DNA of 27,428 nucleotides from a virus (Duplodnaviria; Caudoviricetes). The stretch is from IMG/VR virus record IMGVR_UViG_3300037851_000121, positions 1 through 27,428 of that record; one strand, given 5' to 3'. The notes under the pieces were generated by a model. The model was not told the DNA's origin. It ran no database searches and saw nothing but the letters and a program-made list of their open reading frames with translations. Position 1 is the first letter of the stretch, and the number at the start of each line of letters is the position of its first letter. A program made the position numbers and the translations under genes. Positions 493 through 26,188 of this stretch are shown here, piece after piece.

Positions 493-1130
493 GGATCGGC
501 TTCTATACAACATACGAGCGCGACCCGATCCACTATATCCTCGGGCGCAACATGGTGCGTTCGATCCGCAAGGTGATGCCGGATGTCGAGATCACTCAAC
601 TCACCGACCTCACGAGCGCCCCGATCTATGGCATCGACTCGATCCGGCGTCTGCCTCGTGAGCCACTGTGCATTGCCACCGCACGCCACTACTCGCTCTG
701 CGAGGGGGATTGGCTGCTGATCGACACCGATGTGATCATCCAGAAGGACGTGCGGCATGTCTTCGACGGTGCCACATGGGACTTCGCGCTCACCGACCGG
801 CACGGGACGCTGGTCCCGGGCGAAAAGTTGTTCATGTGGTGCGGGGACTTCAACATCGGTGTCGTCTTCCAGCGCAATGGTAAGGAGTTCTGGAGCGAAG
901 TCGTCAGGAGACTCCTGGCGGCGCCGAAGGACCATCGGCATTGGATGGGCAATCAGATCGTGGCGAGTGAGGTGCTGAAGTCGCGGGATTGGAACTACGT
1001 TCTCCTGCCCGGTGTGGAGTTCAACTACCCCCCGAAGAACACCGAGGACCGGCACGAGCACGCCGCTATCGTCCACTACAAGGGGCCGACTCGGAAGCGT
1101 TGGCTCTACCAGCGATGCGCGTCACTCTAG
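489..1130 (+). CDS. GT-A fold glycosyltransferase (GT8/GT77-like)
   Basis: TTG start overlapping the upstream TGA; DxD motif (LLIDTDVII), FNIGVVF, GNQ, FNYPP and IVHYKG motifs. Confidence 0.8.
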   Translation: MRIGFYTTYERDPIHYILGRNMVRSIRKVMPDVEITQLTDLTSAPIYGIDSIRRLPREPLCIATARHYSLCEGDWLLIDTDVIIQKDVRHVFDGATWDFALTDRHGTLVPGEKLFMWCGDFNIGVVFQRNGKEFWSEVVRRLLAAPKDHRHWMGNQIVASEVLKSRDWNYVLLPGVEFNYPPKNTEDRHEHAAIVHYKGPTRKRWLYQRCASL

Positions 1131-2464
1131 TCAACCCGCCGTCTGCGTTCCTGCTGGATGACAAGGTATTCCCGCCGCTTGGGGTGTTGCGTGTGGCGGC
1201 ATGTCTTGAGCGTGAGGGCCATGACGTGACGGTGCTCGATCTGGCCGGAAAGTCGCCAGACGTGGCGGTCGAGGCCGACCTGATCGGGGTGACGGCGACC
1301 ACGGCGCAGATGCCGTCCGTGATGCGGATGACGCTCGTCGGCCGGACGGTCCTCGGCGGTGCTCATGCGACCATGATGGCGGCTGCGGCCAAGCGGGGTA
1401 GCGAGCGAGGGCGGCGGCGCCTCGCGGAGTTGCTGGGCTGCTTCGATGCCGTGGTGGCCGGGGATGGCGAGGAGGCCATCTTCGAGGCCATGACGAGGGA
1501 TGGACTGATCGACGCCGACGACCCCAAGTCGTCGCTCTACGTCATGGACCAGGACCGGCTCCCGGCGCCGGCCCGACACCTGCTCGACTTCGACTCCTAC
1601 GAGTACCGGATCGACGGCAAGCGGGCCACGTCTGTCGTGACGCAGCTCGGGTGCCCGTTCGGCTGCGCGTTCTGCGGTGGGCGGTACTCTCCGTTTTATC
1701 GGAGGGTGCGCTTCCGCTCAGTCGAGCACATCCTGAGCGAAGTCGCCAGCCTCCATGGCCGCTACGGGCTCGAAGGTTTCATGTTCCTCGACGATGAGTT
1801 GAACGTGTCGCCGCTCATGCCCGTGCTGATGCGACGGCTGACCGAGCTTCAGCGGGAGCGAGGTGCTGAGTTCGCCATGCGCGGGTTCGTCAAGGCGAGT
1901 CTGTTCACCGACGAGCAGGCCGATGCTCTCCGCGAGGCCGGGTTCCGCGAGGTGCTGTTCGGCTTTGAGTCCGGCGACGACCGCATCTTGAGGAACATGC
2001 AGAAGGGCTCTGTGGCAAACAACACGAAGGCGCTGCGGATCGCGGCTGGGGCCGGGCTCCGCGTCAAGGCGCTCATGTCGCTCGGACATCCGGGCGAGTC
2101 TGCCGGATCGGTCAAAGCCACCCGTGACTGGTTGCTTGCCGAGAAGCCAGCCGACTTCGATGTGACCATCATCACGCCCTATCCCGGCACGCCGTATTGG
2201 GATGACGCGCGTGAGGATACCGGCGTCTGGACCTATTCGGCCAAGACCGGGGACCGACTGCACATGTTCGACACCGACTATGGGCGGGACAGTTCCTACT
2301 ACAAGGGCGTGCCGGGGGAGTACCGCGCGCATGTCTGGACGGATCACTTGACGGCTGACGACCTGGTGGAGATCAGGGACGAGACGGAGCGGTCGGTGAG
2401 GACTGCGCTGTCTATCTCTTGGCCCAAGGCGCAGCACTTCGATCATTCGATGGGGCAGGCATGA
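1115..2464 (+). CDS. Cobalamin (B12)-binding radical SAM enzyme (class B methylase-like)
   Basis: N-terminal MRVTLVNPP..FPPLG..VAACL..GHDVTVLD, GGAHAT and GDGE B12-domain motifs; CPFGCAFC cluster motif; FLDDE, FGFESG, TPYPGT. Confidence 0.92.
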   Translation: MRVTLVNPPSAFLLDDKVFPPLGVLRVAACLEREGHDVTVLDLAGKSPDVAVEADLIGVTATTAQMPSVMRMTLVGRTVLGGAHATMMAAAAKRGSERGRRRLAELLGCFDAVVAGDGEEAIFEAMTRDGLIDADDPKSSLYVMDQDRLPAPARHLLDFDSYEYRIDGKRATSVVTQLGCPFGCAFCGGRYSPFYRRVRFRSVEHILSEVASLHGRYGLEGFMFLDDELNVSPLMPVLMRRLTELQRERGAEFAMRGFVKASLFTDEQADALREAGFREVLFGFESGDDRILRNMQKGSVANNTKALRIAAGAGLRVKALMSLGHPGESAGSVKATRDWLLAEKPADFDVTIITPYPGTPYWDDAREDTGVWTYSAKTGDRLHMFDTDYGRDSSYYKGVPGEYRAHVWTDHLTADDLVEIRDETERSVRTALSISWPKAQHFDHSMGQA

Positions 2465-3432
2465 GCGGAACGATCACCAACCGGATCGACTCCATCACGC
2501 GAATCCCCGCCGAGCGGTTGGCGACGGCTATCCCGCCCCCGCGCTCGGTCAAGATCGAGCTGACCGGTCGCTGTAACTACCGTTGTGCCTTCTGCGCCTT
2601 GGCGGTCCGGGACAAGCAGCCGACGAAGGACATGGACTTCGACTTCTTCAAGCGCATCACGCGCGAGATGCGCGAATGCGGGGTCGAAGAAATTGGGGTC
2701 TTCTTCATCGGGGAGTCCTTCTTGGTCCCTGAGCTGTTGGTTGATGCCGTGCGCTATCTGAAGCGCGAGATCGAGATGCCCTACGTCTTCCTCACGTCGA
2801 ATGCCTCGATGGCAAAGTCGGACATCGTGGCGGACCTCATGCGGGCCGGGCTCGATTCGCTCAAGTGGTCCGTCAACTCGGCGTCAGAGGAAGAATTCGT
2901 CCGCGTGATGAAGGTCGGCCCGAGAATGTTCCACCAAGCCACGCAGAACATTCGAGACGCCTACCACGTCCGCGAGGTGCTTCGGGCGAAGACGGGGCTG
3001 TACGCCTCCTCGATCATGTATGACGGAGAGCAGCAGGCGAAGATGGAAGCCTACCTCAAGGCGCACATCATCCCCTTCGTGGATCAGCACTACTGGCTGC
3101 CGCTCTATTCCATGGGGTCGTTTGCGACGGCACGGGAGGAAGCCCTTGGCTATCGACCGACAGCAGGAAACCAGGGACGAATCGGAGCCCTTCGAGAGCC
3201 GCTCCCATGCTGGTCGGTCTTCACGGAAGGTCACGTCACGAGCAGGGGGCACCTTTCGGCGTGTTGTTTCGATGCGTCTGATACGTGGTCGATGGCTGAC
3301 CTTCACGCGGTGTCGTTCCTTGAAGGCTGGAATTCGCTTCCCTTTCAAGAGCTGAGGGCGGCACACTTGAAGAAGGACGTAACGGGTACGGCCTGCGAGA
3401 AGTGTGTGGCCTACCAAGGAGCCGGAGCATGA
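2461..3432 (+). CDS. Radical SAM enzyme with C-terminal twitch/SPASM-like auxiliary cluster domain
   Basis: ELTGRCNYRCAFC; C-terminal PCWSVF...G.LSACCFD...WNS...R......ACEKC; ATGA overlap with upstream gene. Confidence 0.9.
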   Translation: MSGTITNRIDSITRIPAERLATAIPPPRSVKIELTGRCNYRCAFCALAVRDKQPTKDMDFDFFKRITREMRECGVEEIGVFFIGESFLVPELLVDAVRYLKREIEMPYVFLTSNASMAKSDIVADLMRAGLDSLKWSVNSASEEEFVRVMKVGPRMFHQATQNIRDAYHVREVLRAKTGLYASSIMYDGEQQAKMEAYLKAHIIPFVDQHYWLPLYSMGSFATAREEALGYRPTAGNQGRIGALREPLPCWSVFTEGHVTSRGHLSACCFDASDTWSMADLHAVSFLEGWNSLPFQELRAAHLKKDVTGTACEKCVAYQGAGA

Positions 3433-5561
3433 GCAAGGGCAAGTCGGCATCGCTTCTCGAGCGGGCACGGCTGCACTTCAAGTTCGCTACCGAGGCCGAG
3501 GAGGCACAGCGGGAGCGTGAGCGTGAAGACCTCCGCTTTCAGGTGCCCGAGTTTCAGTGGACCGATCAGGCGAAAAAGGATCGTGAGGGCCGACCCACGC
3601 TCAGCATCAACAAGCTCGATCAGCCGCGACAACTCATCCTGAACCAGATGCGCGCTGCCGACCTCGGGGTGCAGATTGCTCCGCTGAGCGAGGATGCCGA
3701 CCCCGATACGGCCGAGATGCTGCAGGGGCTCTATCGCAGCATCGAGCGCGATGGCGGCGAGCTCGCGCGGTTTTGGGCCTTCGACCGTGCCGTTTCGGCA
3801 GGCCGCGGATACTACCGCATCCTGACCGAGTACGACCCTTCCGGCGGTATGAAGGGTGATCAGCGGATTGTTCTGAAGCGAATCTATCACCAGGACGGGG
3901 TGCTGCTCGACCCTGCGGCGCAAGAGCCGGACTGGTCGGATGGGTGCTTCGCTTTCGTCCTGACGTGGATGAGCGCGGACAAGTTCAAAGAGGAGTTCCC
4001 GAACGCCAAGCAGACGCCCTCAACCAAGCTGGAGTGGGAGCAGAGCAAACGGACCATCCCGGAATGGGTTAGGGACGATGACGTGCTGGTTGCTGAGTAC
4101 TGGACGAAGGAATACAGCGAAGGCGACGAGTACGAGCCACCCAAGGTCAAGGTGAGCAAGGTGTGCGGCTGGGAGGTGCTCGAGGCTGAGCGCGACTGGC
4201 CGGGCCAGTACATCCCGATTGTGCCCGTGGTTGGCCGTGAACTGCAGCCCTTCGATGAGGAGCGGCGTCTGGTTGGACTGATCGGGCCGGCGAAGGACGG
4301 GCAAACGTTGTACAACTTCGCAGCCTCAACGCTCGTGGAGCGGATGAGCCTTGAGCCTAAGGCGCCCTTCGTCGGCGCCGCCAAGCAATTTGAGGGCTAC
4401 GAGGCATGGTGGAAGCAGGCAAATCGTGCGCTCCTGCCGTACCTGCCATACAACCACGTTGAGGGTCTCCCGGCGCCGCAGCGGGCACAGATCGACGCCT
4501 CAGGCATGTCGATTGCCATGATGGCGCTGCAGGAAGCCGACCAGTTCATCCAGGCGAGTACGGCCGTCTTTGATCCATCGCTGGGCCGGCTGCCACAGAA
4601 GGAGCGGAGCGGGAAGGCGATCCTTGCGCTTCAGCAGCAGGCGGACGCCGGGACGAGCCACTATCTTCAGAACTTGGCCGATATCAGCATGAAGTACGAG
4701 GCCAAGGTGATCCTCGACCTGATCCCGAAGATATATGACCGGCCGGAGCGGGTGATTCGGATCATCCATGGCGACGACCGCAAGAGCACGGCGGTCATGA
4801 TCGGGGCGCCGTACACGACGGACGACAAGAAGCGCCCGCAACTCGTTCAAGGCTGGAATCCGCAGCAGTCGGCGCCGATGCCTGAGGGGGCGAAGTACTA
4901 CGATCTGAGTCGTGGGGTGTACGACGTGTCCATCTCCATCGGCAAGGCCTTCCAGACGCGCTTGGATGAGGGCCGCGAGAAGATCGGGGAACTGCTGAGC
5001 GCCAAGCCAGAACTGTTCATGATGATGGGCGACATCTTCCTAAACTATGCGGACTGGCCTGGCTCAAAGGACATGGCGAAGCGGATGGAGAAGATCCGCG
5101 AGCGTACGTTCCCGGGCCTCGGGGAGAATGAAGACGGCCAGGCGCCGCCCGAGCAGATGCAGGCCGAGCTCGCTGGCATGAAACAGCAGATGCAAATGAT
5201 GGGTCAGCAGTTGCAGATGGCGATGCAACAGATTGAGACAGACCGTGCGAAGCAGGAAGCCTCGCTCATGAAGGCCAAGATGGACAACGAGACGAAGTTG
5301 CGGATTGCGGCGGCTGACAATGAGACGAAGCTGGCGCTGGCCGGGATGGAGCAGAAGTTTGAGGCGCTGCTGACGATGCTGAACCTCGAGCACGAATTCC
5401 GCCAGGTTCGCGAGGCCGCGGCGCTGGATGCGGCGAAAACGGGACAGCAGATGGACCACGAGCGGACCATGGCGGCCGGCCAGCAGCAGCATGAGGCGGT
5501 TATGGGGGAGCTGGGGCGTGAGGCGCCGGAGAAGCCTGAGCCCGTGGAGCCACAAGCATGA
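3429..5561 (+). CDS. Portal protein, P22-like
   Basis: QW...REGRPTLSINKL, GRGYYRI, VLLDPAAQEPDWSD, YIPIVPV, SGKAILALQQQ, YDVSISIG motifs; long Gln/Met-rich C-terminal helical barrel; ATGA overlap. Confidence 0.93.
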   Translation: MSKGKSASLLERARLHFKFATEAEEAQREREREDLRFQVPEFQWTDQAKKDREGRPTLSINKLDQPRQLILNQMRAADLGVQIAPLSEDADPDTAEMLQGLYRSIERDGGELARFWAFDRAVSAGRGYYRILTEYDPSGGMKGDQRIVLKRIYHQDGVLLDPAAQEPDWSDGCFAFVLTWMSADKFKEEFPNAKQTPSTKLEWEQSKRTIPEWVRDDDVLVAEYWTKEYSEGDEYEPPKVKVSKVCGWEVLEAERDWPGQYIPIVPVVGRELQPFDEERRLVGLIGPAKDGQTLYNFAASTLVERMSLEPKAPFVGAAKQFEGYEAWWKQANRALLPYLPYNHVEGLPAPQRAQIDASGMSIAMMALQEADQFIQASTAVFDPSLGRLPQKERSGKAILALQQQADAGTSHYLQNLADISMKYEAKVILDLIPKIYDRPERVIRIIHGDDRKSTAVMIGAPYTTDDKKRPQLVQGWNPQQSAPMPEGAKYYDLSRGVYDVSISIGKAFQTRLDEGREKIGELLSAKPELFMMMGDIFLNYADWPGSKDMAKRMEKIRERTFPGLGENEDGQAPPEQMQAELAGMKQQMQMMGQQLQMAMQQIETDRAKQEASLMKAKMDNETKLRIAAADNETKLALAGMEQKFEALLTMLNLEHEFRQVREAAALDAAKTGQQMDHERTMAAGQQQHEAVMGELGREAPEKPEPVEPQA

Positions 5562-7049: not shown

Positions 7050-8279
7050 ATGGCGAACACTCTGGTGACCCCCACCTGGGTCACGAACGAGACGGCTCAG
7101 AGGTTCATCAACTCCGTAAAGGGAGTGGCGAACTTCAACCGCTCGTATGACGACAGCTTCATGCAGTCTGGGGCCAAGGTTGGCGCGACCGTTCTCGCCC
7201 GCCTGCCCCAGCAGTACACGGTCAGACGCGGCTCCGGCTGGAGCCCGCAGGCCCTCTACGATCGCACCGTCCCGGTGACGATTTCCTACCAGACGGGCGT
7301 GGACTTCGCCTGGACGTCGGCGCAGGCCACTCTCGAGCTGGACCGGGTGCGCGAGCGGTACGTCAATCCGGCGGCCGACACTCTGGCCTCGGACGCGGAT
7401 GCCCTGGGGATGGCGGACGTCTACGCATCGGTCTACAACTCGGTCGGCACTCCGGGAACGACCCCGAGCACCAACCTGACGTACCTGCAGGCGTTCAACA
7501 AGATCTTCGACGGTGCCGGCCGTGATGACCGCCTCATCGCGGTTCTGGACGGCCTCGCCTCGATCACACTGGTCAATGCCAACCTGACCTCGTTCAACCC
7601 TCAGGAAGCCATCTCGCAGATGTTCAAGCGGGGCCTGATGGGTCGGGGCCAGCTTGGCGTGTCCGAGTGGTATCGAGACCAGAACGTCCCGCGCCACACC
7701 ACGGGCTCTTTCACGGCGGCATCCCCGACCGTGAACGGAGCGAGCCAGACTGGTTCGAGCCTCGTGACTCAGGCCTGGGCCTCTGGTGCCACCTCGCTCA
7801 AGAAGGGCGACATCTTCACCATCGCGAACGTCTACTCGGTGAACCCGCTGAGCAAGGTGTCCACGGGCCGACTGCAGCAGTTTGTCATCACGGCCGACAT
7901 CTCGGACACGGCCGGCGCAGCCACCCTGAGCATCAGCCCCTCGATCATCACCTCGGGCGCCTTGCAGACCGTCTCCGCTTCGCCCGCAAACGGCGCGGCC
8001 ATCTCGGTTTGGGGCGAGCCGGCGGGTGATGCGCTGACGTCGGTTGTCAGTCCGCAGTCGCTGATGTTCGACCCCGACTTCGCGGCCTTCGTAATGGTTG
8101 ACCTCGAAGATCCCATTGCCGGAGCCAAGGCGACGTTCGCCCGCGACCGGGACTGGGGCATCTCACTCCGGTTCGTCCAGCAGTACGACACCACGGACGA
8201 CCAGAACAAGAACCGCATGGACATCATGCACGGGGCCTCGATCCTGCTGCCTCACCTGGCTTGCCGGGTGGTTGGGTAG
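7050..8279 (+). CDS. Major capsid (coat) protein, P22 gp5-like
   Basis: MANTLVTP, NRSYDDSF...GAKVGATV..RLP, LKKGDIFTIANV..VNP, ISLRFVQQYD...D.NKNRMDI motifs. Confidence 0.95.
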   Translation: MANTLVTPTWVTNETAQRFINSVKGVANFNRSYDDSFMQSGAKVGATVLARLPQQYTVRRGSGWSPQALYDRTVPVTISYQTGVDFAWTSAQATLELDRVRERYVNPAADTLASDADALGMADVYASVYNSVGTPGTTPSTNLTYLQAFNKIFDGAGRDDRLIAVLDGLASITLVNANLTSFNPQEAISQMFKRGLMGRGQLGVSEWYRDQNVPRHTTGSFTAASPTVNGASQTGSSLVTQAWASGATSLKKGDIFTIANVYSVNPLSKVSTGRLQQFVITADISDTAGAATLSISPSIITSGALQTVSASPANGAAISVWGEPAGDALTSVVSPQSLMFDPDFAAFVMVDLEDPIAGAKATFARDRDWGISLRFVQQYDTTDDQNKNRMDIMHGASILLPHLACRVVG

Positions 8280-8290
8280 GGAGGGCAACC

Positions 8291-8923
8291 ATGGCACTCG
8301 CAGAAACCACCCTTTCGGCCGCGCTTGGGGCAGGCGGCAAGGTCATGACCGTGGCTTCGGCCACGTCGTTCGCCGCTGGCCGCATCGCTCAGATCAACGG
8401 CGAGATCGTCCAGGTGAGCAAGGACTACGTGTCCGGGTCCACCAGCGTTCCCATCCTGCGCGGGCAGCTCAGCACGCTGCAGGTAGCGCACCCGTCGTCG
8501 GCCCGGGTCGTTCATGGCGATCCATCGGACTTCGGGCAGGGCATCGCCGGATCTCCGTACTCGCCCTACGGGCGGGTCCGGCGCACCGAGTCCTATTCGG
8601 CGGCCGGCGCCATCACCCTGCCGAAGCCCGGGGAGGATGTTGTGGCGATCCTGAACGGGACCGGCGCGCTCGCCATGACCATCGCAGTCCCGTCGAAGGA
8701 TCTCGATGGCTGCATCCTGAACGTCGTCGGCGATGGCGCGGCGGCTCACACGCTGACGTTCTCTGGCGGCCTCAGCGGCGCCGGAAGTTCGTACGATGTC
8801 ATCACCGCAAACGCAACTGGTCAGGTCTGGCATCAGTTCATCGCCATGAACGAGGTGTGGGTGCAGCTTGTGGCGACACCGATGGCGGGGACCGTCACCA
8901 ATGTTACGAGCACCGTGAGCTAG
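8291..8923 (+). CDS. Virion accessory/decoration-like protein
   Basis: Directly after coat, GGGAGG RBS, beta-rich S/T/G/A composition; N-terminal TTLS..VAS..GE...V...RG..T...H domain. Confidence 0.6.
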   Translation: MALAETTLSAALGAGGKVMTVASATSFAAGRIAQINGEIVQVSKDYVSGSTSVPILRGQLSTLQVAHPSSARVVHGDPSDFGQGIAGSPYSPYGRVRRTESYSAAGAITLPKPGEDVVAILNGTGALAMTIAVPSKDLDGCILNVVGDGAAAHTLTFSGGLSGAGSSYDVITANATGQVWHQFIAMNEVWVQLVATPMAGTVTNVTSTVS

Positions 8924-8935
8924 GAGAGCTGAGAA

Positions 8936-9652
8936 ATGGCAATCGCAAGAGCACTCCCGTCGCGGGAGGCGGACAGCTCCAACGCTGATCTGCCTACTCG
9001 AACCGGTCCCTACCGCGAAGCTTACGTCCTGCCCCTTGGGGGCGGCGACTACACCTTCGCGGATGAAGGTTCGTTCTTCCACTGCTCCAACGCCACGCTC
9101 GCCACGGGTATCGCCGGCCATGCGGCGCCTGTGGTGGTGGACACTGACACCAAGGCGCTGCTGCATCTGTACAACAGCGGGCAAAAGAACATCATCCCCG
9201 TCTACCTGTTCCTCGAAGTGACGGCGGCAGGTTCGGCGGGGACGCTCCACTACACCACGATCTACCTGGACAATGGTGGTGTCACGGCTCGGTCTTCCGG
9301 CGGCACGGCGATCACTCCAGTCTGCACCAAGAGCAACGGCTCCTCGGATACCGGCGCTGTCGTCTACTTTGGTGCCGTCGTCACGGCGATGACGTCGAGC
9401 GTCAAGGTGGGCCAGCAGATCGTCCGCGAGGTGATCCCTGTCGTCCAGGACACCATCCTGATGAAGTTCGGCTCGCCGGACGGATCGATTCACTCGTCAC
9501 TCGCGACATCGGGGACGAATGTGAACCACTGCGTTCAGTACTTCGCGCCGCTCGTGATCGCGCCGGGTGGAAATCTGAACATCGCTCAGATCCGTCCGTC
9601 GCAGTCGGGTGCGGCGTCGTATCAGTTCAGCTTCGGCTACATCGAGCGGTAG
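8936..9652 (+). CDS. Putative virion structural protein (beta-sandwich)
   Basis: AGGAG RBS; S/T/G/V-rich; position in the head module. Confidence 0.55.
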   Translation: MAIARALPSREADSSNADLPTRTGPYREAYVLPLGGGDYTFADEGSFFHCSNATLATGIAGHAAPVVVDTDTKALLHLYNSGQKNIIPVYLFLEVTAAGSAGTLHYTTIYLDNGGVTARSSGGTAITPVCTKSNGSSDTGAVVYFGAVVTAMTSSVKVGQQIVREVIPVVQDTILMKFGSPDGSIHSSLATSGTNVNHCVQYFAPLVIAPGGNLNIAQIRPSQSGAASYQFSFGYIER

Positions 9653-9655
9653 CCG

Positions 9656-10111
9656 ATGCCGGCCACCGTGACGTTGAGCTCCACGACGCTGAGCCAGAAC
9701 GTGTCGGCGTCGTCGGGCCTTATCAATGTGGCATCCACTTCCGGGCTCACTTCGGGCATACGGCTCTTTGTCGAAGGGGAGCTCATGCGCGTGGTGAGCC
9801 TGGGAGTTGATACCTCAACGGACGTGAACGTGCTGCGCGGTCAGGATGGAACCTTGGCGGCGCCGCATGTCAAGGGCGAGACGATCTATGTTGGTCAGGG
9901 CCATCAGTTCTACACCGTCGATCCGGTAGGTGTGCCTGCCGACGTGGTACTCGTCTCGCCGTACATCAATCTGACCAATGGATCGGTCTGGTTCGCCCAG
10001 GGCGGGCCGTCTGGTGTCGCCAAACGGTGGTGGCAGAAACAATCTGTCACCTACGGGACTGGTGCGCTCGGCATTAGGACGGTGAGCTACGATCCGACGT
10101 CTTCGACCTAG
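9656..10111 (+). CDS. Virion accessory protein, paralogous to the N-terminus of 8291..8923
   Basis: STTLSQ...VASTSG...GELMRV...VLRGQDGT.AAPH aligns by eye with the 8291 product. Confidence 0.6.
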   Translation: MPATVTLSSTTLSQNVSASSGLINVASTSGLTSGIRLFVEGELMRVVSLGVDTSTDVNVLRGQDGTLAAPHVKGETIYVGQGHQFYTVDPVGVPADVVLVSPYINLTNGSVWFAQGGPSGVAKRWWQKQSVTYGTGALGIRTVSYDPTSST

Positions 10112-10644: not shown

Positions 10645-11364
10645 GTGGCTGAGGTCAGGGATCTCGTCACCGATGCGCTGAGGGAGCTTGGCGTCATCGC
10701 GGAAGGCGAAACACCCTCCGCGCAAGAGATCATTGACGGCCTGACCCAACTCAACGACCTTGTAGACCAGTGGGCCGCTGAGCGGCTCAAGATCCACAGG
10801 ACCACGCGGACGACGTGGACTATTGTCTCTGGCACCCAAACCTATACGGTCGGGACTACGGGGACGGTTGCCGTGGCGAGGCCTGTCTACATCGACGGGG
10901 TGCAGTACCTCGACACGACGATCAGCCCGAACAACGAGATTCCGCTCGAGATGATGACGGACGACGAGTACCGGCAGCTCGCGGTCAAGGCGCAGGAGTC
11001 TACCGAGCCGACGCACTGGTACTACAATCCCACATTTCCGACCGGGACGCTGACGCTCTGGCCGAAGCCAACGGGATCGACGCTTACAGGCGTACTCTAC
11101 GCTCCGCAGGCGGTCGCCGAGTTCTCGGGGATCGACGACACGGTGAGTCTGCCTCCGGGCTACCGGAAGATGATCAAGAAACGGCTCGCGCTCGAGCTGG
11201 CGTCAAGCTACAACCGGCCGATCAGTGGGGATCTGCGCGAGCAGGCGATGCAGGCAGAGGCCATCGTACGGAGGGCGAATCTCCGTATGAACGAGATGAC
11301 GTTCGAGGCCGGAGCCCTTGGACACGCTGGAGGGGGTAGCTTCGACATCCAGGTGGGCGAATGA
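10645..11364 (+). CDS. Head-tail adaptor, P22 gp4-like
   Basis: DLVTDALRELGVIAEGETPSA...DGL..LNDLVDQW and LPPGY..MI...LALELASSY motifs. Confidence 0.88.
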   Translation: MAEVRDLVTDALRELGVIAEGETPSAQEIIDGLTQLNDLVDQWAAERLKIHRTTRTTWTIVSGTQTYTVGTTGTVAVARPVYIDGVQYLDTTISPNNEIPLEMMTDDEYRQLAVKAQESTEPTHWYYNPTFPTGTLTLWPKPTGSTLTGVLYAPQAVAEFSGIDDTVSLPPGYRKMIKKRLALELASSYNRPISGDLREQAMQAEAIVRRANLRMNEMTFEAGALGHAGGGSFDIQVGE

Positions 11365-13232
11365 AGTTCGACGCCTTCTTCGGTGGAAGCTACGAGAGTC
11401 AGGCGATCACCGCCGATTGCGAGCGGACGATCAACTGGTATCCCGAAGTACTGCAGTCTCAGGGCGCGACTGCGCGGAGGGTTCTGTATCCGACCCCGGG
11501 CGTCGAGGTTATTCCTCTTGTTGGTGCCCCAGGGTTTCCCACGCTCACGGTTCAGGCGTCTCCGGGGCGAGCACACTACTCCGTCAACGGTAGAGAATTC
11601 GCCGTCATCGGAGACATGTTCTATGAGTTCAGTCGGAGCGGTATTCTTTCGGCATCCCAGATATCGGGGGATCCGGTGGATGGGTTGCCGGCAACGATCT
11701 CCTATAACGGAGATGGGGGAGCGCAACTATTCGTTACGGCTGGCGGTAATGGGTACTCTGTCGATATCAGCACGACACCATCGACGGCGATAGCCCCAAT
11801 CGCGGCACTCGCTGGCAAGGCACACTTTGGCGCTCATCTCGACGGCTACTTCCTCACGCTGGATACGTCCACGTCCACGCTCTACGTCTCGGATCTCTAT
11901 GATGGAACTACTTGGGACACCGGAGGAACCTTCGCGCAGCGGTCCCTAGGCTCGGATCGCTGGCGCTCGATGGCCGTCAATGGACGCACGGTCTGGCTCT
12001 TTGGTGAGTACACATCAGAGCCGTGGCACAACACGGGGGAACGGTTCCCGTTCGCTCCGGCGCCGGCTGGGGTGATTGAGTTCGGCATCTCCTCGCCGTG
12101 GTCTGCCAAGGTGCTCGGCAATACGATCTTCTGGCAGGGGAACTCTCGAAACGGCCGCATCTGCGTACTGCGCGCATCGGGCTATGCGCCCGAAGTCGTC
12201 TCGACGTACCCGCTCGAGAAGGCGATGCAGGGATATCAGAGCATCACGACGGCCGTGGCCGATGCCTACACCGATGCGGGGCATTCGTTCTACCTGCTCA
12301 ACTTCGACCTCGACGGGGTGACGTGGGCGCTAGACGCCGAAACGGGCCTATGGCACGAGCGGGGGACATGGAACCCGGCGTCGAATGCCTACTCGGCATG
12401 GCGGCCTCGCTTCTATGCCTATGCCTTTGGCGAGCATCGGATGCTGGACACGTCCAACGGCAACGTCTATCGGATGTCCTCGGATCTGAATCGAGACGTG
12501 GATGGACGGCTCATCCGGCGCCTGAGGCGAGCCCCGGCGATCAACGAGGAGAACGCCCGCGTCTTCTACTCGGCGCTGGAGCTTGATATCGAGCCCGGAC
12601 TCGGGTTGCAGGCGGGACACGTCGGGTTCCAGGCGATCCCGGTCATTACCACCGTGAGCGGCGAGGTGACTCTAGACGGCGATCCTGTGCCTGATGTAGA
12701 GGTCATCGTCGAGGTGGACGGTGTGGACGTAGGGACGACCACGACAGATGAAGACGGCGAGTACGAGCTCGAGGGGGTACCGGATGGCGAGGTGACGGCT
12801 CACGCCTTTATCGAGATTGACGATGTTTTCTACTGTGCTGAAGATACCGGAACAGCAACGGGCACTGGCGTCTTCACTAGTCCCGGGACGCTAGTTCTGA
12901 ATCTCACCCTTTCGGTTTGTGGGCTGTCGGCATCGTTCACGGCCGTTTCTACTGGCGCGTTTGGCCCCGATAGTGGAACGCTGACGCTTACGCCGACCGT
13001 GACCAACGGCTCGGGAGATTACTCCTACCTTTGGACTGCGTGGACCGAGCATGGAGGCACAGAGAATGCGCCGGACTTCACCAGTACCGATGAAATCGGG
13101 ATATGGGAATGGCTATACGATATAGCAGAAGACGGGATCTGTACCGGTGAGGCCAAACTGATCGTCACGGACAATGCGACGGGCGCATCTGTCATCTCGG
13201 GTCCTGACCCATGGACCTGGCAGTGCGTGTGA
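11361..13232 (+). CDS. Tail nozzle/hub, P22 gp10-like, N-terminal part, ending in two Ig-like domains
   Basis: [42 protein letters not shown]...[23 protein letters not shown]; then [28 protein letters not shown] (carboxypeptidase-regulatory-like) and a second Ig/PKD-like domain. Confidence 0.88.
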
Positions 13233-13726
13233 TGCCCGCTTATGGTGTGGCGCCGCTCACGGTGAACTTTTACGACACGTCTAGCGATGCCGACTCATGG
13301 GCGTGGACGTTTGGGGACGGCGCGACTTCGACCAGTCAGAACCCGTCGCATACCTACACCGCGGATGGGACATATTCAGTGAGTCTGACGGTGACAGGCC
13401 CGTTAGGTTCGCTGACGTTCACCGATCTGGTCTATGTTGGTGCGGCATACATCGGCCCCGACTATGAAAGTTGGGTTCAGCCCGATCCGGCATACATCGG
13501 CTGGCCGGGAACCGATCCGCAGGTGATGCTTCGGATCAGCAATGACGGCGGACGGACCTGGGTCGCTGAAATCTGGCGCTCGGCCGGGAAGACGGGGGAG
13601 TACTCGCGGCGCATTCGCTGGAATCGAACGGGCATGGGGCGGCGCCGCGTGTTCGAGGTGAGCGTAACCGATCCGATTCCATGGCGGATCACGGGGGCCT
13701 ACCTTCAGGCAGAGAAGGGCACCTAA
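13232..13726 (+). CDS. PKD domain fused to the C-terminal part of the gp10-like nozzle
   Basis: TGATG overlap; [27 protein letters not shown]...[10 protein letters not shown] (PKD); [25 protein letters not shown]...[12 protein letters not shown] (gp10 C-terminus). Confidence 0.88.
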
Positions 13727-14220
13727 TGGCGCTGCCCAAGTTCCTCGACCATGGCAAGCCGTATCCGGGCCATGACGTTATCGCCGGCCCAGGCGGAATG
13801 CTGTCGCCCTCGTGGGCGTCGTGGTTTGCTCGCCTGACAGATACTCTAGCGAGTATCCCGAACATCATGAATGTGACCTCGCTCGAGGAGCAGGATGCAA
13901 GCATCACCGCGACCGACCTCAGCGGGTTTCAGCATCTTCCTGCTGGTTTGTATCGCGTGACGTATGCGGCGCGGATCACGACAGCAGCCGTCACGTCGAG
14001 TTCGCTCACGGTGACGATTGCCTGGACAGATGGCGCGGTGGCGCAGAGCCAGGCGGGGGCCGCAATGACGGGGAATACGACGACGACGAGGCAGACTGCG
14101 AGCTACCTAGTGCGAATCGACGCCGACTCGGACCTGACCTATGCGACGACCTACGCGAGCAACGGGGCTGGGGAAATGAAGTACAGCCTCGATATCGCGT
14201 GTGAGAGAATCGCGGCATGA
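13726..14220 (+). CDS. Tail protein at the needle (gp26) position
   Basis: TAATG overlap; G.LSPSW.SWF..L N-terminal motif seen in genes following gp10; Thr-rich beta C-terminus. Confidence 0.6.
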   Translation: MALPKFLDHGKPYPGHDVIAGPGGMLSPSWASWFARLTDTLASIPNIMNVTSLEEQDASITATDLSGFQHLPAGLYRVTYAARITTAAVTSSSLTVTIAWTDGAVAQSQAGAAMTGNTTTTRQTASYLVRIDADSDLTYATTYASNGAGEMKYSLDIACERIAA

Positions 14221-18802: not shown

Positions 18803-19981
18803 ATGCCCGGCACTATCGCACCCTTCCCAAAGCACTTTTTCACTGACAACAACGGCTCTCCCGCCGTCGCACACAAGCTGTTCGTCTATGAGACCGGGAC
18901 GACGACGAAGACAAACAGCTACACCGATGTTGACCTGACCTCGGCCAACACGAACCCCATCATCCTCGACTCGGCGGGCCGCTGCACGATCTTCCTACCT
19001 CCGGGCTCATTCACGTTCGTCCTGGCCCCCTCGACCGACACCGATCCCCCGACCTCGCCTCTCTGGACCCAGGATAACGTCGAGCAGGTGCCTTCCGCCG
19101 GCTCCAACGTGGACATCGACGGAGTAGCCGGCGAGACGATTGATGAGGGCGAGCTGGTCTATCTCGAGGACGGCACGGGAGGGACCGCTGGTCGCTGGTA
19201 TCTCACCAACAACTTCGTCATCGCGGAGTCTACCGAGGTCCCCGCGTGGGGATTCGCGCTCAACGATGCGACCGTGGGCGAGGAGTTGGCGGTTAGGCGG
19301 TCGGGACGGGTGACGCTGGCGGGTCCGCTCACGGCCGGGACGATCTACTACATGAGCGACACGGCGGGGGCGCTCGAGACTCCGGCGCCGACGCCCGAGG
19401 CCGGCTTCGAGATGCCCTATGCGGTAGGCATCGCGGACTCGACCACCACGCTGGTATTTCCGTTGTCCTCACCCCAGGCCCACACCAAGGACGCGCTGAA
19501 GACGATTGCATTCAGCAGCGGCCAGAGCAATGCCGGTGGTGGCGGTGATACCGAGCTCACGTCCTATGACGTCTACCTGCCAGCAAACTACATCGGCGCC
19601 GCTGGGAATGCGCTCGTCATCGAAGGCACGATGAGCGTTGCGGCGAACGGGGACGCGAAGACGGTCAAGGTCCAGGTGGGGAGCGGTACGGCCGTCACGG
19701 TCTGGAGCTCGTCCGCGAACGTGGCGAACCATGTGGTGCCGTTTCGCATCGTGATCCGGCGCCGGACCTCGACCACGGGCTCTATCTCAAGCGTCTTCTG
19801 GCATGGTGTAGCGTCAGGGAACAACGCCGACCCTTACATGGTCTATACCACCATAGGGACGGTAGCATGGACATCGAACCAGTCGATCACGCTCTATTGC
19901 GCCGCGAACACGGTGACTTCGGTCACGATGAACGACTTGACGTACTATGCGCTCCGCAGCGGCAACGCGGCGACCGTATGA
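18803..19981 (+). CDS. Tailspike/tail fibre with P22-type head-binding N-terminal domain
   Basis: FTDNNGSP....KLFVYETGTTTK..SYTD.....NTNPIILDSAGR; then a small beta domain (AGETI..GELVYL...GFAL...G.V..LTAGTIYY) and a C-terminal beta-sandwich. Confidence 0.8.
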   Translation: MPGTIAPFPKHFFTDNNGSPAVAHKLFVYETGTTTKTNSYTDVDLTSANTNPIILDSAGRCTIFLPPGSFTFVLAPSTDTDPPTSPLWTQDNVEQVPSAGSNVDIDGVAGETIDEGELVYLEDGTGGTAGRWYLTNNFVIAESTEVPAWGFALNDATVGEELAVRRSGRVTLAGPLTAGTIYYMSDTAGALETPAPTPEAGFEMPYAVGIADSTTTLVFPLSSPQAHTKDALKTIAFSSGQSNAGGGGDTELTSYDVYLPANYIGAAGNALVIEGTMSVAANGDAKTVKVQVGSGTAVTVWSSSANVANHVVPFRIVIRRRTSTTGSISSVFWHGVASGNNADPYMVYTTIGTVAWTSNQSITLYCAANTVTSVTMNDLTYYALRSGNAATV

Positions 19982-25162: not shown

Positions 25163-26188
25163 ATGCGCGTTCTCTCTCTGTTCTCCGGCATAGGCGGCTT
25201 CGACCTTGGCCTGGAGTGGGCCGGGATGGAGACGGTCGGTCAGTGCGAGATCGACCCCGCGTGCCGGTTCTGGTTGGAGCAGCACTGGCCGGAGTTGCCG
25301 CGTTGGGGCGACATCCGCGAGGTGACGGGCGATGCGGTTAAGGCAGCGTGCGGCGCAGTTGACGTTGTTGCCGGAGGCCCGCCCTGTCAGCCGGCCAGTG
25401 TGGCAGGACGACGGCAGGGAAGTGCTGACGTGCGATGGCTCTGGCCTGAGTTTCTCCGCGTGTGCCGCGAGGTTGGTCCCCGCTGGGTCGTGGCAGAGAA
25501 CCCTCTCGGCCTCGCTAGCCTCGAGCCTCACGGGCTTGATTGGGTGTGCTGTGAGCTTGAGGGTGCGGGCTACGAAGTCTGGCCGGTCGTTGTTGGCGCC
25601 CGACATGTCGGGGCTCCGCACCGGCGGGACCGGATCTGGCTCGTGGCCCACCGTTCACGGGATGGACAACGAGGGCAACCCGCGCAGGAACGGGCCGACC
25701 GGGAACGAGTTGGGGCGGGCGGTAACGCGGCACGACTGGCGATCCCCAACGCGGGAGGAAGCGGGTCCGCGAATCGAGACGCTTGCGACGAAGGACGGCA
25801 AACTTCGACTTGGCGAGCGTCTATACCGCAGTGGCGGAGTTCATCAGTCGGTGACGCTAGGGCTTCAGGTGGAGATAGCAAATCGTATTTGGGCGACGCC
25901 GAACACGATGGACGGCGGTCAGACGAGCCGGGGCGAGAAGCGGAAGGGCGAACTGCTGCTTGGGGGGCAGGTGCGGCAGTGGCCTACGGCGACGGGCGAG
26001 GACAGTCGGGCGAGCGGCTCACTCAACCCCGCCTGGGTGTCTCAGTTGATGGGCTTCCCGACTGGGTGGCTGGCCGCATCACCTCCCGTCACCGGAGGGA
26101 AGCGTTGAAGGCGCTGGGCAACTCCGTCGTCCCGCAGTGCGCGGCGGCGGTCGGGAAAGCGATCCTCGACGCGGAGGGGCTAGATTGA
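25163..26188 (+). CDS. DNA cytosine-C5 methyltransferase, large (alpha) chain
   Basis: Motif I LFSGIGG, IV GGPPCQ, VI AENP, VIII HRRDRIW, X ALGNSVVP; motif IX absent from this frame. Confidence 0.92.
   Translation: MRVLSLFSGIGGFDLGLEWAGMETVGQCEIDPACRFWLEQHWPELPRWGDIREVTGDAVKAACGAVDVVAGGPPCQPASVAGRRQGSADVRWLWPEFLRVCREVGPRWVVAENPLGLASLEPHGLDWVCCELEGAGYEVWPVVVGARHVGAPHRRDRIWLVAHRSRDGQRGQPAQERADRERVGAGGNAARLAIPNAGGSGSANRDACDEGRQTSTWRASIPQWRSSSVGDARASGGDSKSYLGDAEHDGRRSDEPGREAEGRTAAWGAGAAVAYGDGRGQSGERLTQPRLGVSVDGLPDWVAGRITSRHRREALKALGNSVVPQCAAAVGKAILDAEGLD
25332..26108 (+). CDS. Nested +1-frame small (beta) chain of the C5 methyltransferase (start uncertain)
   Basis: WPTV/WRSPT/WATPN/WPTAT repeats and motif IX-like LNPAWVSQLMGFPTGW. 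Confidence 0.75.
   Translation: MRLRQRAAQLTLLPEARPVSRPVWQDDGREVLTCDGSGLSFSACAARLVPAGSWQRTLSASLASSLTGLIGCAVSLRVRATKSGRSLLAPDMSGLRTGGTGSGSWPTVHGMDNEGNPRRNGPTGNELGRAVTRHDWRSPTREEAGPRIETLATKDGKLRLGERLYRSGGVHQSVTLGLQVEIANRIWATPNTMDGGQTSRGEKRKGELLLGGQVRQWPTATGEDSRASGSLNPAWVSQLMGFPTGWLAASPPVTGGKR

Follow-up and report, generated by a model that had tools for sequence, protein, structure and literature searches.

A hub of the P22 gp10 type is encoded in two pieces by overlapping genes of an uncultured, short-tailed phage, and very probably its two chains are made separately and re-form one subunit through strand A of a PKD domain, which is donated by the first chain to the second. The stretch of DNA analysed here (the window; 27,428 nucleotides) is the whole of a 27.4-kb contig whose sequence is present in two freshwater metagenome runs, X1 and X2, and it has a P22-like virion block on board. 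Its genes run in the order portal, scaffold, coat, adaptor, hub, acetyltransferase and ejection proteins, with the hub in the same position as in phages with a P22 gp10-type (PHROG 578) hub. This hub is encoded by both ORF1 (11361-13232, 623 aa) and ORF2 (13232-13726, 164 aa). Unlike in a canonical PHROG 578 member, the halves of the platform domain are not on one polypeptide but are separated by a stop/restart at 13230-13234, and judged by their sequences ORF1 and ORF2 together represent a homologue of the P22 gp10-type hub family in two pieces, and not a canonical member.

The N-terminal part of ORF1 (residues 1-419; 11361-12617, plus strand, as are all coding features given below) comprises the β-propeller and the N-terminal half of the platform domain of a P22 gp10/Sf6 gp8-type hub. 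Residues 6-417 align with positions 8-401 of the PHROG 578 sequence profile (E 1e-58), and the six best Foldseek matches of ORF1 are the hubs of Pan3, P22, Pam1 and Sf6 (E 2e-14 to 4e-12). This is followed by the putative donor strand, PKD strand A (residues 418-429, core Phe423; 12612-12647), which was assigned using conservation, PKD spacing and a predicted interface. The remainder of ORF1 is formed of two domains that we refer to as cargo. Cargo domain 1 (approximately residues 430-515; 12648-12905) is a CarboxypepD_reg-like β-sandwich, identified with Pfam PF13620 (E 9.6e-07; 29.5 bits, under the cut-off of 32.3) and by confident β-strands in the model. Cargo domain 2 (approximately residues 516-623; 12906-13232) is modelled as a PKD/Ig-like β-sandwich with a free C-terminus at the TGA stop, and its look-alikes among Atlas structures (TM 0.6-0.7 to PKD/Ig clusters) serve as a lead only. 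ORF2 begins with a PKD domain that is without strand A (residues 1-70; 13232-13441), as supported by Pfam, the model and structure alignments. It scores above the Pfam cut-offs for both PKD_4 (PF18911; E 3.8e-15, 56.1 bits against 27) and PKD (PF00801; E 7e-12, 45.6 bits against 23.5), and contains the WxFGDG motif. A return linker to the hub (residues 71-92; 13442-13507), delimited from alignment A1 described below, leads into the conserved hub C-terminus (residues 93-164; 13508-13726), which forms the C-terminal half of the platform domain and matches positions 399-472 of the PHROG 578 profile (E 2.6e-15). No promoter- or terminator-like site and no NCBIfam name were found for the ORF1/ORF2 region.

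A preliminary description of this DNA had reported a hub segment interrupted by ~890 nt and by a stop/restart with a frame change, and these coordinates are correct: the hub motif starts at 12579, HVGFQAIP occupies 12618-12641, the ORF1 TGA (13230-13232) overlaps the ORF2 ATG (13232-13234) in the -1 frame, and the motif resumes at ORF2 residue 93 (13508), 890 nt past 12617. Likewise, the arithmetic behind its 596-nt distance and in-frame join holds, and the 596-nt stretch does encode two acidic β-sandwich domains in the ORF1 frame (18% D+E, 0.5% K+R).

The cut lies just after strand A of the PKD domain and leaves the core Phe on ORF1. In 217 canonical PKD repeats, which are matches of the A1 search and, swamped by multi-PKD proteins (as was a search of representatives), uninformative on fused forms, the domain starts P-V-A-x-F-x-x-x-P, with Phe at 96% and four residues before the last Pro. 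ORF2 starts one residue before this conserved Pro and is therefore without strand A. Its model also contains no strand A and aligns from approximately residue 11 of the stand-alone solved PKD domains 6aem and 4xed, while alignment with 4u6t covers 71 residues (Z 9.6, rmsd 1.7). In split ORF1 proteins the strand-A motif directly follows the last hub strand; it is near-canonical in P0046 and P0082 and diverged in the window. The strand-A Phe is kept in 20 of the 21 rows of the ORF1 alignment (A2), whatever the cargo and also when there is no cargo, with the Ile and Pro that come after the Phe found in two and four rows, respectively. In 15/21 rows a Met lies two residues past this Phe; the idea that it marks a hop site or internal start was rejected, as the window has Ala here and the residue fits an inward-facing strand position.

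The same loop of the hub carries a different insert of ~170 aa in the intact hubs P0025, P0028, P0031, P0033, P0037, P0057 and P0061, and it can therefore be described as an insertion hot spot. A second split subtype (P0175-P0179 with P0049, P0062, P0064, P0082 and P0094; locus L086) carries no cargo; its PKD domain is shorter, belongs to a different lineage and is cut at this same boundary between strands, and the subtype may have arisen independently.

Searching with ORF1 yielded 707 matches, and among the 120 best, 40 (window included) are without the hub C-terminus, 62 are intact with a short loop, 11 are intact with another insert, three are intact with PKD in the loop and four are unclear, with classes assigned at the protein level and some of the proteins without a C-terminus possibly being contig-edge fragments. 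Eleven homologues align over 98-100% of the length of ORF1 at 44-59% identity and likewise end after the cargo. In the corresponding search with ORF2, 57 among the 120 of 166 matches listed are ~160-aa proteins composed of PKD and the hub C-terminus, and when these are aligned with ORF2 (A1; 58 rows), 55 rows begin with Met and 53 have Pro at position 2. Dozens of proteins share the split. Scans of genome collections found no split locus (one scan returned eight loci, one of them fused, and another returned a single chance match), and in 50,697 records of cultured phages there were 35 partial matches, none with the ORF2 layout and none covering 80% of ORF2.

We then scored the stop/start junctions on DNA at 12 distinct loci, window included. 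L117 was left unscored (14 nt upstream only), L127 is a near-copy of L027, the duplicates L001/L025/L113/L114, L124, L125 and L126 were not counted, and L115 and L123 were dropped as chance pattern matches. The gap between stop and start is -1 at eight of the 12 loci (window, L026, L027, L086, L116, L119, L120 and L122), +2 in L118, +8 in L022 and L023, and +3 in L121, although in L116, L120, L121 and L122 the hub core lies beyond the DNA examined and we infer the identity of the upstream gene. At L026 the overlap is TAGTG (3499-3503), where GTG encodes the same Met-Pro start.

Frameshift-linked Ig domains are known in phages, and a programmed -1 frameshift at or before the stop could fuse ORF1 and ORF2 into a single chain with the cargo looped out of the PKD domain. 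A capsid frameshift in K1F is mentioned in the available portion of PMC13370021. Gaps of -1, +2 and +8 all correspond to the -1 frame, which is seen at 11 of the 12 loci, and the Shine-Dalgarno sequence before ORF2 is weak (anti-SD duplex of -3.5 kcal/mol, compared with -2.5 to -8.2 in relatives), as are those of several other genes in the window. However, none of eight loci has an X XXY YYZ heptamer within its open overlap, a TGA in the ORF2 frame immediately precedes the ATG in L022 and L023, and in L121, with its gap of +3 behind a presumed ORF1 equivalent, a TAA closes the ORF2 frame two codons before the start. Furthermore, Met1 of ORF2 is conserved (55/58), and the gaps of +2 and +8 follow from earlier stops. 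Because an ATGA overlap is impossible when the ATG precedes a Pro codon, TRATG is the form expected of coupling. We therefore consider a frameshift very improbable and the TGATG overlap at 13230-13234 a likely case of translational coupling.

To model the complex we used ORF1 residues 414-623 and ORF2 residues 1-76, which excludes the hub strands and retains the cargo as a competitor; hub pairing could therefore not drive the result. Three runs scored 0.67, 0.67 and 0.63, whereas none of three controls scored above 0.00, and the mark for this score is reached by 116 of 157 solved and two of 215 mismatched pairs, but since whole PKD folds have been solved this pass may reflect likeness and not binding. 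Contacts agreed between runs by at least 88%, with a partner pLDDT of at least 83. ORF1 residues 418-429 were placed antiparallel to ORF2 residues 11-17 in the canonical register, with Phe423 touching Phe13 and Leu52, which are conserved in 57 and 58 of the 58 rows of A1, respectively. Thus, the check that had been proposed, whether the strand of the HVGFQAIP region completes the sandwich, predicts it into the ORF2 PKD domain. When ORF1 was modelled alone, the propeller and cargo folded, and residues 1-46 and 376-425 had a pLDDT <50, for which the shallow alignment (21 rows) may partly account. These two regions correspond to parts of Sf6 gp8 that build the apical domain together with the C-terminus; according to the available part of PMC9728967, extensions at both termini make up this lamin-B1-like domain, which docks on the adaptor.

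We also examined cysteines across 21 gene pairs, of which seven were paired on DNA and 14 by equal size of their source contigs, with one of the latter (L022) checked on DNA. A Cys before the strand-A Phe occurs only together with a Cys in strand B of ORF2 (both in two pairs, a single one in none, neither in 19), and these positions match the modelled contact between residue 422 and residues 16/17. Both cases belong to one clade, of which another member, L086, has neither Cys. Likewise, a Cys in the outgoing linker of ORF1 occurs only with a Cys in the return linker of ORF2 (two pairs with both, none with either alone and 19 with neither). Pairs bearing such cysteines include P0049/P0176 and P0007/P0139. 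These counts are post hoc, with two cases per site and no correction for kinship, and across the aligned sequences the paired cysteines lend small but independent support to strand pairing.

Alternatively, the two chains might associate via the hub platform domain only, with the ORF2 PKD domain folding alone or strand A packing on the cargo. The PKD part of ORF2 is indeed predicted with a pLDDT of 85-98 without strand A, and the window's strand A is diverged from the canonical motif. Set against this, Phe423 is kept in 20 of 21 rows regardless of cargo, including where cargo is absent, the complex model adopts the canonical register even though the cargo competes, and cysteines are paired across the chains, which makes association through the platform alone very improbable.

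Relatives carry zero to several unrelated domains in the place of the 596-nt stretch, which is therefore C-terminal cargo and not an insert that needs removal. No domain follows strand A in L027, L086 and L119, single-domain cargo consists of either one CarboxypepD_reg-like or one complete PKD domain with its own strand A, the window has two domains, and longer, unrelated tails are present in P0013, P0087, L121 and L122. As the cargo PKD domains have a strand A of their own, the first strand A is left free. On the core tree, closely related sister hub cores carry different cargo. In addition, P0006/P0121, linked as a pair by the equal size of their source contigs, show 85% and 93% identity to the window in the cargo and PKD domains, respectively, whereas the hub parts on either side show 65% and 71%, as transfer of the entire block from one hub gene to another would predict. 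By analogy, the cargo is plausibly an adhesion module of surface-binding domains, and PKD and Ig-like domains are described as phage adhesins for gut phages in the available portion of PMC13370021. The terms 'essential' and 'adhesion' in the preliminary description likewise derive from the protein families.

As its alternative to complementation in trans, the preliminary description had proposed that the 596 nt are skipped, by a DNA deletion subpopulation, splicing or a ribosome hop, so that a single-chain isoform without cargo exists alongside the split form. Joining the two sides keeps the reading frame and brings back canonical PKD spacing, as would be expected of any split descended from an intact domain. 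Near both junctions the window also contains a perfect 14-nt inverted repeat (arms 12650-12663 and 13251-13264, 587 nt apart, beginning 11 nt past the left junction), a length reached by none of 273 random window pairs. However, the perfect repeat is absent in four of four relatives, which have 6-8 nt only, and in the closest relative of the cassette it cannot be perfect, as one arm there encodes Ile in place of Val (judging from P0121); the repeat is probably specific to the window and incidental, a coincidence of codons (TVS versus LTV). The suggested microhomology at the junctions amounts to a longest exact repeat of 4 nt, which 76% of random 21-nt window pairs reach, with repeats of 3-4 nt at background level in five of five cargo loci, and the Ile-Pro that creates the window's repeat is not conserved. 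A comparison of 12300-13900 with Rfam gave no match at E≤1, the stretch codes for protein and is conserved at the protein level, and the cargo-less loci L027, L086 and L119 are still split at the same place. Furthermore, PKD domains of the ORF2 type form one clade (95/97) with none of five fused genes inside it; the PKD domains of those five group loosely with the second, shorter split subtype in a tree of 79 columns. There is consequently no uninterrupted gene of this PKD lineage among the five, and cassette skipping appears highly improbable. Of the two readings first offered, complementation in trans is the one that stands, supported by the conserved split, canonical PKD spacing, the complex model and the paired cysteines, while skipping found no support.

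The chance of an assembly error, or of a decayed and non-functional gene, is negligible: the lone contig that spans the junction (X1, depth 11, zero differences at the contig level rather than in raw reads) may be the window's own source, and X2 contigs do not cover the junction, but the same split recurs in dozens of proteins (44-85% identity) as well as at 11 other DNA loci, and this comparison of sequences argues that it is real and conserved.

From the observed split, its place after strand A, its conservation and its variable cargo, a mechanism can be proposed for a hub whose two chains are joined by the donated strand. ORF1 and ORF2 are likely translated separately by stop/restart, and residues 418-429 of ORF1 are predicted to pair with strand B of ORF2 and bury Phe423 against Phe13/Leu52. 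Based on the Sf6 structure, the last 72 residues of ORF2 would complete the platform domain with the N-terminus and residues 376-413 of ORF1, which would provide a second, independent latch. The cut would open what had been a closed loop at the surface, leaving a branch that ends in a free C-terminus. Zero to several Ig-like domains may have been added to this end, and recombination between the conserved motifs of the hub would allow their exchange. Each tail would then present six copies of the cargo, likely to attach the phage to its host's surface or to particles, although this is the least certain step. More broadly, there is about an even chance that this is a natural split-PKD tag/catcher, disulphide-locked in some members, which would make the hub an exchangeable receptor-binding platform with its payload swapped between environmental P22-like phages.

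On trees of the hub core, split hubs are intermingled with fused and short-loop ones, which suggests that the 3' module has been repeatedly exchanged or re-made. We counted eight changes between split and whole, at least four of them forced by starred branches, using FastTree and quick IQ-TREE trees with a midpoint root that do not give the direction or number of origins (P0006, P0016, P0041, P0065 and P0078 were omitted, and the labels of P0100 and P0109 were changed by eye). The simplest path would be insertion of PKD in the loop, followed by a stop/restart after strand A and then accretion of cargo. Such a path, in which a domain is inserted in a loop and then cut inside the insert, would be a general route for a core virion protein to gain a free terminus for variable surface domains with its fold kept. 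It also predicts a compact single-strand PKD tag/catcher pair with testable inter-chain contacts, and would explain a common mis-annotation, in which a 'truncated' gp10 precedes a 'PKD repeat protein'.

Elsewhere in the window, two radical-SAM genes (989-3432; a B12-binding radical SAM and a radical SAM/SPASM) lie immediately upstream of the portal gene, at the usual position of terminase, and are a possible modification cluster. Downstream of the coat gene there are three small β-rich genes (8261-10111), and that at 9656-10111 has weak tail-fibre PHROG matches and resembles the N-terminus of 8261-8923; these are likely decoration proteins. The ejection genes are followed by a gene of 392 aa (18803-19981), in which an N-terminal domain is P22-tailspike-like in position (weak phrog_26190) and no fibre body was recognised, and a C5 cytosine DNA methyltransferase gene is located at 25163-26188. 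As none of the window's genes was recognised as a long fibre gene, the hub cargo may be of greater importance.

The hubs P22 gp10, Sf6 gp8, Pam1 and Pan3 (PHROG 578, 'head closure Hc3'; PF11134 in precomputed matches; PDB 8u10, 7sg7, 7eeq and 9vyg) have their profile, fold and gene order in common with the window hub, but they are single chains without PKD, whereas in the window a second gene encodes the C-terminal half of the platform. The PKD domain itself (PF00801/PF18911) matches by profile and fold, with strand A and its core Phe on the other polypeptide. In chaperone-usher pili, an incomplete Ig fold is completed by a strand of a partner through donor-strand complementation; in the pili it is the last strand (G) that is lacking and a polymer is built, while in the window it is the first (A) and the pair is 1:1. 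In the literature searched, mostly without subscription papers and not covering supplements, no hub split inside PKD was found, and the available text of PMC10386132 makes no mention of split hubs. There is a close likeness to the Pseudomonas podophage A1002, where, in the portion of PMC13730344 available, a solved nozzle is formed of gp39 (nozzle-rope) and gp42 (nozzle-base) with domains completed by strand addition. In both phages nozzle domains are divided between two genes, and in A1002 the C-terminal piece has an extension with an Ig-like domain. However, according to the same text, the A1002 cut lies inside propeller blades and the C-terminal piece carries a 300-Å fibre-docking rope, with gp40/gp41 between the two genes by numbering, whereas the window genes overlap, the cut is in an inserted PKD domain with the propeller whole, the variable cargo is on the N-terminal piece and ORF2 is 164 aa. 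Complementation in A1002 is seen in a solved structure, while the PKD pairing in the window is a prediction. Likewise, in the Tuc2009 baseplate, as described in the available part of PMC4742702, a hairpin of BppU completes domain 2 of BppA, an Ig/titin-like sandwich, in trans, so that in both systems an Ig-like sandwich is completed by strands of another virion protein. Tuc2009 differs in being a siphophage baseplate in which a two-strand hairpin docks an accessory protein, whereas in the window one strand joins the halves of a core protein. Precedents therefore exist, in the accessible text of these sources, for both a two-chain nozzle (A1002) and strand completion in trans (Tuc2009).
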